Of a stretch of 64,000 nt of DNA, positions 2,089-62,130 are shown piece after piece. The position numbers and the translations under genes were made by a program. The notes below the pieces were generated by a model that did not search any database, was not told where the DNA came from, and was given only the letters and a program-made list of their open reading frames with translations. Source of the DNA: Eledone cirrhosa. Taxonomy: Eukaryota. Position 1 is the stretch's first letter, and each line of letters starts with the position of its first letter. The DNA lies in assembly GCA_964016885.1 (NCBI GenBank), contig CAXHJY010000551.1, positions 86,916 through 150,915 of the forward strand, read 5' to 3'.

Positions 2089-2490
2089 AAAACCAAATGT
2101 TAAACAAGGTTCATTGATTATTCAATGAATACAGTTTTACAATAGATTAAAAGCACTCAACAATGAAGTTTTCTGGAGTTATTAATATTATTCAAAATAT
2201 TAATAAATGGATAAATTCACATAATCAAAATATATGTTTTATTATATATATTTCGGAGGTACTGTGCTGCTTTTTCAGTACGTCCTCATCAGATAAAATA
2301 CATAAATTGATGTATGACATACCTCAACTGTGCTGATGGTTCAATTCCAGTCTTGGCAGTTATTTATTACAACAAAACTCAATATTTATATACCACATAT
2401 ATAAATATTGGATTTTGTTGTAATAAATCACTGCCAAGACTGGAATTGAACCATCAGCACAGTTGAGGTATGTCATACATCAATTTATAT
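2089..2490. repeat. Family A fold-back element (arms ~2303-2392 and ~2398-2487)
   Basis: Near-perfect inverted arms; homologous to 32425-34340; TA-rich flanks. Confidence 0.88.
2237..2298 (-). ncRNA. Type I HHR (family A)
   Basis: TTTTAT-CTGATGA-GGAcGTACTG..cAGTACcTCC-GAAA-TATATA-TA-ATAAAA. Confidence 0.82.
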
Positions 2491-2700
2491 ATTATATATA
2501 TATGCAGTAATAGATCTTTTGACTTACTAAGCAATTCCACGTCGTTCTCCACCCTAGCACACTCTTTAAGAAGTAAATGAGAATTTATTTCTATTCTATA
2601 CGCCAAAACAGAATGTAAAGAGCTCCAATTAAATGCCGTCAAGCAATTTTCCCGACGCTCTAACGATTGGATCAATCAACCACCCTTCTAACGATAGATA

Positions 2701-2845
2701 TAGAGTGGCACATAAAAAAGTAGCTCGGGTTTCGTAGCATATTGTAAATACAAACGGAAGCCCGGCTGCTTTTTTCGTGTGTTAATTTATTTCTGTATTT
2801 ACACTATGCTACGGAACCGGAGCTACTTCTCCAAGCGCCACTCTG
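2701..2845. mobile_element. Tc1/mariner-type MITE
   Basis: ~50-bp imperfect TIRs (tagagtggcac...gcgccactctg; agtagctcggg/ccggagctact; tagcatattgtaaataca/tgtatttacactatgcta) with TA flanks. Confidence 0.75.
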
Positions 2846-3111
2846 TATAATATATAATAGTGGATATTTAATGTCTTATACAGAAACAGTGAAGTTTGGC
2901 GGCTGTAGCTTGAAAACGTCCGTCTCCTCCATACTCTTATTTAGAGCGCGGTAGGGGTTGGGACATATGGATGATGTCTGAGTTAGGGATTATAGGGGAT
3001 GTCTTATCTCTAAATATAGACATTCAGTTCATGATTGGCTCAGTTTTTATGAATGTAATCTTTACGAGTTTTGAATCAGACGATTTTGTTCATTAGATGC
3101 TTTGTTTTCTG

Positions 3112-3270
3112 AGTGCCAGTATCAGTAGAGGGTTGGACGCCATGCTTTCCAGCATAGTTACGTCCCTTTAATTTCTGAGTTCAAATAACCGCCAAGGGGT
3201 CGATAAAATAAAGTACCAGTAATGTACTGGTAATTAGTGGCCTTGTGCCAAAAGTAGAAACAATTATTTA
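3112..3270 (+). mobile_element. Meta-like SINE, internally deleted
   Basis: Similar to 62851-63045. Confidence 0.75.
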
Positions 3271-4470
3271 CGTAAAGGGGATTCGATGGTTGCTTGCGTT
3301 AGTTCTATATATATATGTATATAGTGTATATATATATATATGTGTAGTATAAGTGTATATATATTTAGCGTAGTTATCAATGGTGAATAGACTGGTTGGA
3401 GGAATAACGGTCTTGTTTACTTATAACTACATATATATGTTTGTGTGTATCTTGTGTATGTGTGTGTGGTTGTGTTCGTATGTGTGGGTGTGTATATGTT
3501 AATATATGTAATGAAGATAACTGAGAGTGTACAATGAAATGTGCTACCAATTAAATGAGAGGAAATTAGGTTTTGTTGCTTCTATGTATATTGATGTTAT
3601 ATCATAATTGGACTTATTATTTTAGATGTGCATTTAGTTGGTATCTATAAGATTTCATAGAAGAGTTCAGTAGATTTAGTTGTAGGATGATTGATGTATG
3701 ACATTTCGGGATCTTGCTCTTCATCAGATGGTTAGGAAGATAAAGAATCTGATTACATTGCCGACTTGACGGCAAGCTAATAAGAAAAGTATTGTCGGCA
3801 TGCCGCAGAAGAAGCGACATAAATTTCTCTTTTTTGTCACTCACTGATACAGAACAAAATTTCGAAACATTAAATTGTTTACTATTTATCTCACACACAT
3901 TGAAATAAGACTATTCCTACTATATATGGCGTGAAACTTCTATATATCGTATTTGAGCCTCATCGTTTGTTGTGCTTTTTTCTTATACTTTTCACACTCT
4001 CAAACACACACACACACACACACATATATATATATATTTATATATCATATATATATATATATTGTCATACAGTCTCTGTTTTGTACTCCTGAAGAAGGAG
4101 TTAAGCCCAACACGTGGAACTTTCTTTCCTCTTATCAATATAAAGCGTGCTCTGTTTCTTGACTCCTTGAACTACGTATATATATATATATATATATATA
4201 TATATATATATATATATATATATATATATATATATATATATATTGAACTTATCCGGGGAAGCTTAACAAAGATATCCCTCTTTAAGTGGAGCAATCTCTC
4301 TTATCGACTATATTGAAAATTGTGTATATCACTCCCTACTACCATTGCTTAGGTGGTTTTCCAGAGATCCACGCCACACGTACACGGGTGTGTGTGTATA
4401 TATATATATATATATATATATATATATATATATATATACATAGTTATGTAATAAACAACATAAGATAATT

Positions 4471-58965: not shown

Positions 58966-59410
58966 TGGAGACAAGCTACTGGGAGAGGCTAAATGAACTG
59001 AACCTCTACTCCTTGGAGCGAAAACAGGAGAGATACGCAGTGATCTACATGTGGAAAATCCTGGAGGGACTAGTACCAAACCTTGGCATTGGGAGGTGGA
59101 CCAACCGTCGAACAGGACGTCACTGTGTGGTGCCAAAGGTCCCGTCTTCCACACAGGCTGCCGAGGCATCTGAGAGTCTTGCATGACGTGGAGGTGGATG
59201 TCTTTAAGAAACATCTCGACACCTTATTATCCAGGATCCCGGATGAGCCCACAGCAAGACACGAGGGAAACCTAAGGGCAGCAGCAACAAACTCCCTCCT
59301 ACACCAGTGGCCAACCTATACAGGCTGGAGATAAAATGTGTAGCAACAAGGGCGGTGCCCCAGCATGGCCTCAGCCGGATGGCTGAAACAGGTAAAAGAG
59401 TAAAAGAGAA
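58966..59410 (+). mobile_element. 3' end of an APE-type LINE (CR1/RTE-X-like), internally deleted
   Basis: SYWERLNELNLYSLERKQERYAVIYMWKILEGLVPN and VDVFKKHLDTLLSRIPDEP; ends in GTAAAAGA x2; embedded in (TA)n. Confidence 0.8.
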
Positions 59411-59702
59411 TATATATATAATATATATATATATATATATATATATATATATATATATATATATATATATATATATACATATATCTATATATATAATATA
59501 TATATATATATACATATATATAGAGAATTAATATATCTACCAACATATGTATACAGATGTTTACCCATGGTAGCAAATATATATGTTATGCCTTGGTACC
59601 TTTGTGGTTCTATGCAGGGGAATGCAGAACAATTATATGAAAGACGTAAAATATGAAAATTTTAAAAATTAAAAATCAACTTACTTACTAAATTTTCACT
59701 CC

Positions 59703-60098
59703 ATATATATATATATATACATATATATATATATATATATATACATATATATATACATATATATATATATATATATATATATATATACATATATATATAT
59801 ACATATATATATATATACATATATATATATACATATATATATATATACATATACATATATATACATATATATATATATATATATATATATATATATATAT
59901 ATATACATACATATATATATATATATATATATATATATATATATATATATATATATATACATATACATATACATATATATATATATATATATATACATAT
60001 ACATATACATATATATATATATATATATATATATATATATATACATATACATATATATATATATATATATATATATATATACATATATATATATATAC
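59703..60098. repeat. Interrupted (TA)n array
   Basis: Direct reading. Confidence 0.97.
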
Positions 60099-60143
60099 AG
60101 GATGAGATTATAGTTCGCTTGAAGCATTGTGTAATGAGGTATA

Positions 60144-60378
60144 AACGTTTGTATATGTATAATAAAGCCAAAACAATGCAGGAATGGACATAGAATAAAG
60201 AATGCAAATGCAAAAGATATTGTTGACAATTAGTCTCTTACCTTAGATTTATTTAAATGTCCTTAATTTTCGAGATAATATCTCTTCTTCGGAGGGAAGT
60301 AATATCTCTTGCATTTGCATTCTTTATTCTATTTCAATACCTGCATTGTTTTGGCTTTATTATACATATACAAACGTT
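60144..60378. repeat. Inverted repeat (~78-bp arms) at the 5' junction of a PLE
   Basis: 60144-60221 versus 60301-60378; HHR in the spacer. Confidence 0.85.
60261..60295 (-). ncRNA. Minimal HHR (U4C variant) in the spacer of an inverted repeat
   Basis: CCT-CCGAAGA-aGAGATattATCTC-GAAA-AT-TA-AGG. Confidence 0.68.
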
Positions 60379-62130
60379 AAGAACCATAGCCCCCGTAGAA
60401 TAGAGAACCTTAACAAGCACATACACATGTTCTTCAAGTCATACGGCCTATCCGTAAATATGGACCTCAACCACTCGGTGGTCAATTTCCTGGACGTGTC
60501 CCTGGAGTTGAGTACAGGCCTATACAAGCCATACCATAAGCCTGAACAGAGCCTTTCGTATATTAATTATGCCTCCAGCCCCCCTAAGCAGACTCTCAAC
60601 TCCATAGTTTATAGCATTTCACATAGGATCTCAAGGCTCACCGCCAATGTGGATATCTTCAACCAAGCGGCAGATTACTACAATAAGACCTTGATAAGCG
60701 CCGGTTTTAACCGAGGAATCTCCTACATCCCTAATGCTAGCTCCAGAAACCACCCCTCTCATAAGACTAACGTTATAGTAAGCCATACCTATAACCGAAC
60801 GCGCGGCGGCTTTGAAAGAGTCAGATATAATAGTATAGAAAATCGCACTAAGGAACATGGCCGTAATGTTAATTACACTAGCAATAGTATTGGTAGCTTA
60901 CCACACAATAAGAATTACGACCCCGCTGACAGTGGCCACTGTAGCCTATTTGAATTATTCCCTTATTCAAGGTAAGGCTATTATTATTGCTATTTGATAG
61001 CAATAATAATAGCCTTACCTTGGGAATTAGAAGGGACCGTGACCGAAATTGCAACTCCCGTGACAAGGGACGCTTCCCCTTAGGAGTAACTGCCTGACTG
61101 ACAGGGTTATTTATAGGTGCACCGTAACTAGCCATAATAGCGTTAAACATTGTATAGGGGCTACCTCTGGCCCGTTCAAAAATAGATTTCGAACACATCT
61201 CCACTCTTTCGCAAACAAGAAACTAAGACACTCCACTTCGCTCGCGAACTACATCACAGCATTACAATACTCAAACATCAGCTTCTCCACGCACTGGGAA
61301 ATTGTCGGCAGAGCAGCACCGTACAATTTCAAGAGAAAGTGTGAGCTTTGCATCATGTAGCTTTACCACATCATAACAGCACCCCTCGAGCTCATCAAGA
61401 ACAGAGCAGAAACGACGATAAGCTGCACACACTGCTTAAAAATATCCTACTCCAGATGGAATAAGAATGGGGAGTAAAAAAACGTAAACCGGGTCGCTCT
61501 GCACCAAATGTTGACACCCCGACGGGCAGGCGCTGCGAAAAACATCGGGAAACTAACCATGCATCCCAGACCCGGCACAAATCGACCCAGGCGGGCAGGC
61601 GCAGCAAACAAACATCTGGAAAATAACGTTGCATACCTGATCCTGTGCGTATCGACAATGGTAAAGCTGCAACTACAAAGAAATGACGGATAAAAAGTCA
61701 CATGGAGAATTGCTGCTCTAAAACCGTTAGAGTTATCTCCCTTGACCTACTGCAAAATCAATACATGTTTTGTTACGAGGAATGAAATGTGACGTGAACA
61801 TATTTCTAAAAAAAAACCATTCCGGGTCATGTAAGGAACGCTTTTTAGTTTTTATGCCCCTGAGAAGCCCTTTCGGGAGAAACGTACGTAGGTGGTATTT
61901 TAAATAAACATGTTTTAACGGTTTGTTCTCCTTTATATATATTTCTCCACATGTATCCGCTCTGCTGATTTTCTCGCCCACTAGATATTCACACTTCTAA
62001 TATTTAACACTGCAGACACGCTTTGAGCCACCTCTGCATATGCTATTGGCAAATAACTACATCTATCGCCTATTTCTTCTTCTTCTTTCTTCTTCTTCTT
62101 CTGCTTCTCTATCTCGATACTTAATTACTC
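60379..62130 (+). mobile_element. PLE (Neptune-type) remnant: RT C-terminus, GIY-YIG and pLTR
   Basis: VNFLDVSLELSTGLYKPYHKP..YIN..S..P..SISHRISRL; then GVIYRCTV..HCIGATSGPFKNRF..H..SF..TSLANYI..WEIV..CELC (61105-61355). HHR-like motif at 61858-61892. Confidence 0.85.
61858..61892 (+). ncRNA. pLTR HHR with altered core
   Basis: CC-CTGAGAA-gCCCtttcGGGa-GAAA-CGTACG-TA-GG; palindromic helix III; G8 substituted. Confidence 0.58.

Follow-up and report, generated by a model that had tools for sequence, protein, structure and literature searches.

Hammerhead ribozymes (HHRs) have been described in Penelope-like elements (PLEs), together with palindromic helix III, cleavage as dimers, opposite-strand pairs and U3-A8 cores (PMC4209133; PMC6765202, PMC7761336), and an octopus element of the Hydra clade bearing an HHR is listed in the supplement of PMC8557442. 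HHRs are also carried by non-coding retrozymes. For these, a 2020 review states that the animal repeats show no motif pointing to a partner enzyme (PMC7761336), and a 2026 preprint argues, from co-occurrence and trees, that PLEs mobilise them (10.64898/2026.07.22.740005). Here we report on a 64,000-nt stretch of the Eledone cirrhosa genome (assembly GCA_964016885.1, contig CAXHJY010000551.1, positions 86,916 to 150,915, forward strand; hereafter the window), in which an earlier note made from the letters alone had seen about 20 hammerhead motifs. These motifs are very probably type I hammerheads at the 3′ ends, or pseudo-long terminal repeats (pLTRs), of many PLE families, mostly of the Hydra clade, present as truncated or head-to-head copies in (TA)n, and one non-coding family, termed D, likely uses the same proteins. 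This reading is carried by the motifs and their family structure, the coding partners of seven of 11 families, the diagnostic motifs of the Hydra clade, the TA context, two fixed 3′ ends and covariation. PLE hammerheads and non-LTR retrozymes are known kinds, found here at an unusual scale; what is new is the scale itself, together with an expansion of Hydra-type elements, tails about 90 nt long, a U4A core that is fixed and a retrozyme bearing a PLE footprint.

A strict type I descriptor was applied to the window, comprising CUGANGA, helix II of at least 3 bp, GAAA, helix III, UH and helix I of at least 4–5 bp, and tolerating an optional extra base after A9 and a mismatch at 10.1-11.1. It yielded nine hits, against a mean of 0.02 and a maximum of 1 in 50 block-wise dinucleotide shuffles, none in the reversed sequence and none in 30 of 30 order-3 Markov simulations of the window. 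Hammerheads are thus present above chance, as had been claimed. Allowing one core change gave 11 hits against a background of 0.4, and dropping the helix I requirement gave 16 against 1.44 in shuffles; descriptors lacking the extra base and the mismatch returned only 6–8. The 20 sites of the earlier note, whose coordinates are motif starts or ends lying 0–60 nt off the core, are indeed all hammerhead-derived, but only nine are strict, two carry one substitution, three are minimal, five are damaged and one is a junction artefact. They collapse to 15 insertions (four head-to-head pairs and one tandem) of 11 families, A1, A2, B, C, D, E, F, G, H, I and J, in line with the many type I families proposed. 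The strict cores lie at 2292(−), 4528(−), 6599(−), 6777(+), 34136(+), 34628(−), 39775(+), 41516(−) and 52498(+), that is, one per 7 kb rather than the suggested one per 3 kb. Single core substitutions mark 47636(−) (CAGAAGA, usual for its family) and 52029(+) (C3G), and the minimal motifs at 5542(+), 54503(+) and 60292(−) have a helix I of 1–3 bp. Damage affects the first helix I pair at 35972(+) and helix III at 56935(+) and 50874(+); 61860(+) has C3.A8 and G10.1.A11.1 mismatches against a relative, and 33981(−) is broken after GAAA. The site at 12232(+) was rejected as a true motif: its CTGAAGA arises from an inversion through a CAGAAGA core and stands without the 5′ strand of helix I.

Six further sites had been called decayed. 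Those near 4090, 11030, 30600 and 57350 match HHR families elsewhere; those near 3700 and 43130, decayed minimal-hammerhead-like motifs at 3695–3727 (−) and 43140–43175 (+), have no relative among the collected loci. Overlooked were two sets of halves of a further family, L (10717–10905 and 31123–31262), a motif at 30920–30996 (−) and coreless tails at 12315–12493 and 59524–59700. DNA of the ribozyme-bearing families, coding parts counted, amounts to 9,953 bp, or 15.6% of the window and about 20% of its 50,028 bp outside microsatellites, so that about a fifth, not much, of the unique-looking DNA consists of such elements. The proposed check with the Rfam model Hammerhead_1 failed, giving no window hit at the gathering score, an outcome that agrees with the idea of uncatalogued elements. 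An e-value scan of the window with Rfam showed no hammerhead among the best 150 of 390 rows, in which microsatellite matches to microRNA families dominate, and Hammerhead_1 matched 18 of the 74 genomic candidates scored. The Rfam model misses these hammerhead variants, and the scale of the population, of which Rfam finds none in the window, matters for annotation.

The scale was estimated from 76 stretches of 10 kb (760 kb) at round coordinates on 19 large contigs, a sample that holds no unplaced contigs and is not exactly size-weighted. It contains 56 strict motifs (0–2 in ten shuffles), or one per 13.7 kb, with 15 of them from two arrays of one family, and every one has a relative at another locus. 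For the 3.0-Gb genome this extrapolates to ~218,000 strict motifs (bootstrap 127,000–328,000); merging hits less than 1.5 kb apart leaves 31 clusters, or ~122,000 loci. The five family D motifs in the sample extrapolate to ~20,000, against 25,286 exact D cores counted genome-wide (none with the reversed pattern), and the sampling is therefore of the right order. At the sample rate, at least nine strict motifs in 64 kb have a chance of ~0.13, so the window is ordinary for this genome and not specially dense as had been thought. A covariance model of family A matched 45 times in 824 kb, seven times inside the window, and clustering of all collected loci gave 37 multi-locus clusters, ~25 of them with credible cores. 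Two further claims were borne out. Helix III is a Watson–Crick palindrome in 35 of the 56 strict sample hits and in 43 counting G-U pairs (the two arrays contributing 15 of the 56), against 16 of 215 shuffled hits of a looser descriptor, and of 54 strict hits in the sample, 41 have a TA run no more than 260 nt downstream, compared with 22% of random places.

The population resembles the minimal PLE hammerheads of PMC4209133 in its minimal cores with a base added after A9, its short palindromic helix III, the many divergent families within one genome, opposite-strand pairs 100–700 bp apart, U3-A8 variant and mostly single motifs from truncated PLEs; those number ~2,000–9,000 per genome against ~2×10^5 strict motifs here, many of which have full helices I and III. 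A literature search for hammerheads in octopus or cephalopods found no genome-wide study, the words 'ribozyme' and 'Hydra' are absent from the consulted sections of a 2026 octopus repeat annotation (PMC13282606), and the published count for giant squid is 235 (PMC6962438). In print, mussel, coral and frog have about 5,000–9,000 HHRs and the axolotl 120,000. Schistosoma mansoni reportedly holds near 50,000 hammerheads, which would give a similar density, and no density record is therefore claimed.

Coding sequence was found upstream for seven of the 11 families, five of Hydra type and two of Neptune or Nematis type, which substantiates the Penelope-like link drawn from the motifs. The window itself holds two PLE coding remnants, at 48064–49585 (−) (63,889 first-look genome candidates, of which 150 were scored) and 60391–61438 (+). 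Near-intact copies of family E encode frames of 709–713 aa with a single reverse transcriptase (RT) plus a GIY-YIG endonuclease (EN) at the C terminus; in 26 of 30 loci the motif of E is found downstream of this endonuclease, and the full layout of inverted copy, pLTR, open reading frame (ORF) and pLTR is seen in collected locus L083 (among L081–L083). The frames are in pieces for C, A1, A2, L and J. Proteins of E and C share RWR, DKT, CxCX5C, CxxC and CxH and have no CxxC between VY and YIG, whereas the other Hydra-type families (A1, A2, L and J) were assigned by 35–56% identity to E. Hydra-type frames lie upstream and in sense of C (L286, L372), L (4 of 30 loci; L373, L374), A1 (1 of 30; L123, L287), A2 (L098, L288), J (the window and L097) and a further family, M (L095), with the endonuclease 1,245 nt upstream of A1 in L123 and 1.0 kb upstream of A2 in L098 and L288. 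Locus L290:452–6661 holds a Hydra-type sister of C with a 725-aa frame, three U3-A8 hammerheads and the inverted-copy, pLTR, ORF, pLTR layout. Upstream of F and G there is an RT-EN with a CX2-5CxxC linker (linker in L360 and L364; elements in L360, L362 and L364), 1.4 kb upstream as a 536-aa frame for F in L360; this linker before GIY-YIG suggests that both are of Neptune or Nematis type. The Naiad clade was rejected, the endonuclease being C-terminal. Pfam gave no hit for the PLE frames. Hydra-type coding fragments occur in 14 of the 76 sampled stretches, and all 40 scored copies of family C are identical over 177 nt, so C is very young. Because seven of the 11 families run into RT and GIY-YIG in longer copies, most short copies are truncated dead ends; they are 5′-truncated or 5′-inverted PLE ends in these families and not, as first supposed, mainly non-coding mini-elements. 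The features of the window are as follows, with the strand where a single one applies.

2092–2484 (−): family A1, Hydra-type PLE 3′ end; 2092–2397 (−) with intact HHR 2243–2292, short inverted arm 2398–2484 (+)
4079–4149 (+): decayed minimal HHR remnant, family F-like, core at 4089
4444–4604 (−): family B; HHR 4479–4528 with A.A at 10.1-11.1 and helix II of 10 bp; coding partner not found
5492–5659 (+): family F, Neptune/Nematis-type PLE 3′ end; minimal HHR 5542–5569, CCGAAGA, helix I 2 bp
6431–6900: family A2 head-to-head pair, Hydra-type PLE 3′ end; HHRs 6555–6599 (−) and 6777–6821 (+)
10717–10905: family L hairpin; two arms, each with just the 3′ half of a hammerhead of U3-A8 type
11031–11092 (+): decayed 3′ end of Hydra-linked family M
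12079–12297: hairpin of family E whose inversion runs through the ribozyme core (junction artefact at 12232)
30595–30781: family E remnant, double inversion
30863–31005 (−): further HHR family; motif 30920–30996 with TTGACGA core and palindromic helix III
31123–31262 (−): family L 3′ remnant without the 5′ core
33937–34339: family A1 head-to-head pair; interrupted HHR 33981 (−), HHR 34136–34189 (+) with 2-nt insertion
34450–36065: family C head-to-head pair, young Hydra-type PLE 3′ end; 731-nt arms, 99%
34591–34628 (−) and 35972–36009 (+): family C HHRs, the former intact, the latter with one broken pair
39739–39854 (+): A2-like copy; HHR 39775–39819, damaged helix III
41347–42153: copy of the candidate retrozyme D with rearranged fragments; 41347–41719 (−), HHR 41486–41516
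47575–51029: family E, single head-to-head Hydra-type PLE insertion
47575–49568 (−): its main arm, with RT, GIY-YIG and HHR 47596–47636 (CAGAAGA)
49582–51029 (+): its inverted arm, HHR at 50874, interrupted by a short interspersed nuclear element (SINE)
51900–52858 (+): family D tandem, candidate non-LTR retrozyme; two 469-nt units between (TA)n
52029–52059 (C3G) and 52498–52528 (intact) (+): HHRs of this tandem
53837–54605 (+): family G, Neptune/Nematis-type PLE 3′ end; minimal HHR 54503–54530
56913–57066 (+): family H, old; HHR 56935–56972 with mutated helix III; coding partner not found
57204–57420: family E hairpin remnant, decayed
60104–60378: family I head-to-head insertion; minimal HHR 60264–60292 (−)
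60391–61937 (+): family J, 5′-truncated Hydra-type PLE; RT 60391–60726, GIY-YIG 61076–61438
61860–61890 (+): damaged HHR of family J, which has a relative with a U3-A8 core

The Hydra-type families share with the published Hydra clade (PMC8557442) the C-terminal GIY-YIG, RW[K/R], DKT, CxCX5C linker, CxxC, CxH, (TA)n target and canonical HHR near the 3′ end, as well as U.U at 10.1-11.1, which is found in 14 of 25 Hydra families of its file S2; the named protein relatives of family E are likewise cnidarian, namely from corals and a jellyfish. Insertion in (TA)n, pLTR, inverted 5′ copy and a tail at one end were all found in these families. However, the clade as described there comprises a small number of families below 3 kb, and here there are many, with RT identities of 30–70%. 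Furthermore, the 3′ untranslated regions are 0.4–2.2 kb and the tails 87–93 nt here, against tails of 30–40 bp, and no Hydra row of file S2 has the U3-A8 or U4A cores seen here.

Analysis of the insertion ends revealed two fixed 3′ ends per family, at +107/+20 from the cleavage site in L, +119/+29 in E and +151/+58 in A1. One arm of each end type was present in 54 of 62 head-to-head pairs, the same end never twice, and the other eight had one irregular end. None of 124 arm starts lies within 5 nt of the cleavage site. Since 48 of 60 arm starts in family L fall 25–50 nt upstream of that site, inside helix II, most L copies are without the 5′ core (47 half-motifs and three full cores in 760 kb). 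Inversions of family E recur at one point within the ribozyme core, 42–45 nt upstream of the cleavage site (window 12232, L034:5780, L086 and L237). Of 28 L pairs, 13 have a tail-less arm that extends further 5′ than its partner, as do 10 of 19 pairs of E; these fit two primings better, and a simple cDNA fold-back was rejected as the only source of head-to-head arms. The A1 pairs, 11 against 2 from biased loci, do not favour two primings over fold-back.

The protein of the anole Poseidon element PAc, a predicted dimer that prefers uncleaved RNA, cuts and extends both strands of an AT-rich target and starts at two internal RNA sites bounding the tail (PMC11167929), much as the footprint here suggests; its start sites, however, lie in the start of the frame ~30–40 nt apart, whereas those here lie in the non-coding pLTR, 60–93 nt apart, each with a TA junction. 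By analogy, we propose a putative model for these insertions. A dimeric RT-endonuclease would cut both strands of (TA)n, and reverse transcription would start at two internal RNA sites 60–90 nt apart, one per strand. Both cDNAs would usually stop early and become joined head to head. The template would be uncleaved or re-ligated (circular) RNA, because copies run across the cleavage site. As the ribozyme lies 20–150 nt upstream of the priming sites in L, E and A1, nearly every aborted copy would carry all or part of it, which would explain the high motif density. The ribozyme would probably serve to separate multimeric transcripts into units, cutting as a dimer through the palindromic helix III or with protein help. 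Most genomic copies would be dead.

Family D differs in being non-coding. Its units of ~424–540 nt with internal (TA)n and a GC content of 36% occur as monomers, tandems of up to ~6 and head-to-head pairs. A D-linked frame was absent from two sets of 30 loci, one of best matches and one taken in order of position (partly overlapping), and from two 10-kb stretches, and the PLE fragments near D are separate insertions across TA runs. D copies end at either of two points 62 nt apart or inside the internal TA run and start anywhere, often being longer than one unit; in loci chosen for spanning the cleavage site, all 63 segments begin more than 5 nt away from it. A monomer running from one cleavage site to the next is predicted to form a self-paired circle (z −7.1, the TA run contributing). 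A second non-coding tandem family outside the window has a 310-nt unit, arrays of at least 10 (L088:8460–9800, L112:7014–9830) and a predicted circle (z −4.1), with an HHR related to that of D in loop II and helix III only. The idea of non-coding elements thus holds for these two families and not for the seven with coding partners. The marks of non-LTR retrozymes, non-coding tandem units with a type I HHR in each and a GC content below 50%, are present in D and absent from A, C, E, F, G, J and L, whose long copies have coding sequence upstream. D also resembles the metazoan non-LTR retrozymes (PMC7229834; 10.64898/2026.07.22.740005) in occurring as monomers to multimers, in its predicted self-paired circle and in the PLEs of the same genome; its unit is above the 170–400 nt of the former source and within the 51–972 bp of the latter. 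Outside TA runs, D resembles none of 14 reference elements, and its Hydra-like traits are the HHR style (U.U at 10.1-11.1) and the insertion footprint only, with a (TA)n target, head-to-head arms and two fixed 3′ ends. A PLE integration footprint of this kind (tail, head-to-head arms, TA target) is not reported in the consulted passages of these two sources. Judged by its footprint, D was likely inserted by PLE proteins and is a candidate non-LTR retrozyme using them. Which enzyme moves animal retrozymes is therefore testable here, as D shows this footprint beside young, near-intact Hydra-type elements.

The ribozyme itself may be under selection. In family A, represented by 26 of the 55 collected copies, hand-picked for subfamily coverage, pairing holds in 89% of cells, and 56 cells are compensated against 23 in shuffles; in the D group, with 14 sequences (12 of the 24 collected D copies and two of the 310-nt family), both partners have changed in 10 of 14 pairs. 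Slid controls are far lower. A stronger sign of selection than this stem covariation is the swap of the 3-8 pair: its commonest form over the 37 multi-locus clusters, some of them noise, is C-G in 24 and U-A in seven, with C-A or U-G in none, and C3-G8 is exchanged for U3-A8 between the sister elements C and L290 (RT 68% identical). Other core letters are invariant in the alignments. Non-consensus cores, U3-A8 and U4A, are borne by abundant families. U3-A8 and U10.1.U11.1 are known natural variants (PMC3088659; PMC4209133); U4A, present in 49 of 50 copies of E, itself among the most abundant families, had no case in the consulted sections of those papers or in the passages found by a literature search on U4A. 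With their copy numbers, the dozens of natural variants, among them the U4A core that is fixed in a very abundant family, bear on the function of PLE hammerheads.

Several points weigh against our reading. No coding partner was found for B and H, in 25 loci and two longer stretches each, and for I there was one doubtful coding hit in 20 loci and none in two longer stretches. Few long copies stand behind the coding links of A1 (1 of 30 loci) and of L (4 of 30); neighbours sharing one TA run can mimic coding linkage, and collecting loci by similarity favours long, young copies. The clade calls are based on motifs and not on a tree with named references, a quick tree giving unnamed relatives only. 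Two of five covariation measures for family A are not above shuffles (52/500 and 494/500), and the alignments, gathered with anchors holding stem letters, lean to structure. Family E combines the U4A core with U.U at 10.1-11.1 and a UU cleavage site, a core whose cleavage may be weak or absent. Elsewhere, eight of nine Xenopus retrozyme dimers remained uncleaved in vitro (10.64898/2026.07.22.740005), and insertion by the anole PLE was unimpaired in vitro by HHR mutants (PMC11167929).

Three other explanations were weighed. That the motifs arose by chance in AT-rich sequence of low complexity, or as assembly artefacts in an unplaced scaffold, has a negligible probability: several stems are AT-rich, one helix III is (AT)4, the loose-descriptor background is real (19 per 760 kb without helix I) and the window is the end of a 151-kb unplaced contig, but this idea is already refuted by the strict background (0.7 per 760 kb), the relatives of all 56 strict sample hits at other loci, the D cores against their reversed pattern and the presence of the same families on chromosomes. 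We also find it improbable that most families are independent non-coding retrozymes or mini-elements spreading via circular RNA, with incidental or ancestral coding neighbours. D and the 310-nt family with their non-coding arrays and predicted circles fit this idea, as do B, H and I with no partner found, and L, nearly all short hairpins with most arm starts in one 25-nt zone, could comprise self-copying short masters. Nevertheless, long copies of E, C, A1, A2, L, J, F and G continue collinearly into RT-EN, their 5′ ends vary and they form no tandem units, and the L junction sequences differ from locus to locus.

A third explanation, rather unlikely, is that the fold of the hammerhead is retained for its structure, as a signal that binds protein, pairs with RNA or positions the two priming sites, and that cleavage is dispensable. 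It would account for the U4A core of E and for the lack of insertions starting at the cleavage site; the anole HHR mutants point the same way, as does the lack of reads ending at the site in the anole PLE (PMC11167929), and Naiads thrive without a canonical HHR (PMC8557442). The covariation of the 3-8 pair over families, of the form that catalysis needs, and the otherwise invariant core argue against it, though it is not exclusive of pLTR hammerheads of PLEs as the origin of the motifs. Going beyond this preferred origin, we tentatively consider that D may be a circular-RNA retrozyme mobilised by a Hydra-clade PLE dimer, with one priming site per cut (TA)n strand and the RT rolling round the circle, and that this hammerhead population (~2×10^5 intact motifs, more than 20 families) may be among the largest recorded. 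In the boldest form of this proposal, the integration complex would hold its two RNA templates paired through the palindromic helix III, and pairing, not cutting, would be what the U4A hammerhead is kept for.

Other features of the window were also noted. The coreless tails at 59524–59700 (−) and 12315–12493 are 3′ tails of HHR families ending just before the ribozyme. More head-to-head or inverted repeats lie between TA runs at 62473–62776 and 9846–10683, with no core seen in the examined arms, and may be ends of other PLE families. A TA-flanked hairpin at 39382–39530 with CUGAUGAAGGAC, which has 32 matches in the collected loci, was rejected as a type I hammerhead for having no GAAA downstream and as a type II hammerhead for having no helix II by eye. 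A 50-nt satellite (L094:1092–7294) was likewise rejected as a ribozyme; its unit resembles a damaged core and inflates loose-descriptor counts. A very abundant SINE-like repeat, at ~100 matches per 760 kb and with one copy inside the inverted arm of the family E insertion, occurs at 3102–3278, 13660–13813, 14177–14487, 15098–15527, 25431–25693, 50536–50726 and 62828–63059, and a tRNA-like SINE family at 14616–14835 and 57924–58141 is located in (TA)n, as PLE ends are. A 163-aa frame at 43526–44017 (−), without a Pfam hit, presumably resembles a transposase fragment. The repeated 5′ part of a non-LTR element is present at 11698–12019, 27043–27371 and 54736–55188 (94–98% identity), with frames at 27191–28288. 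Another non-LTR retrotransposon, at 17138–20599 (+), has an intact-looking 1,153-aa frame with endonuclease, RT and zinc-finger domains and a degraded relative at 45231–46868 (−).

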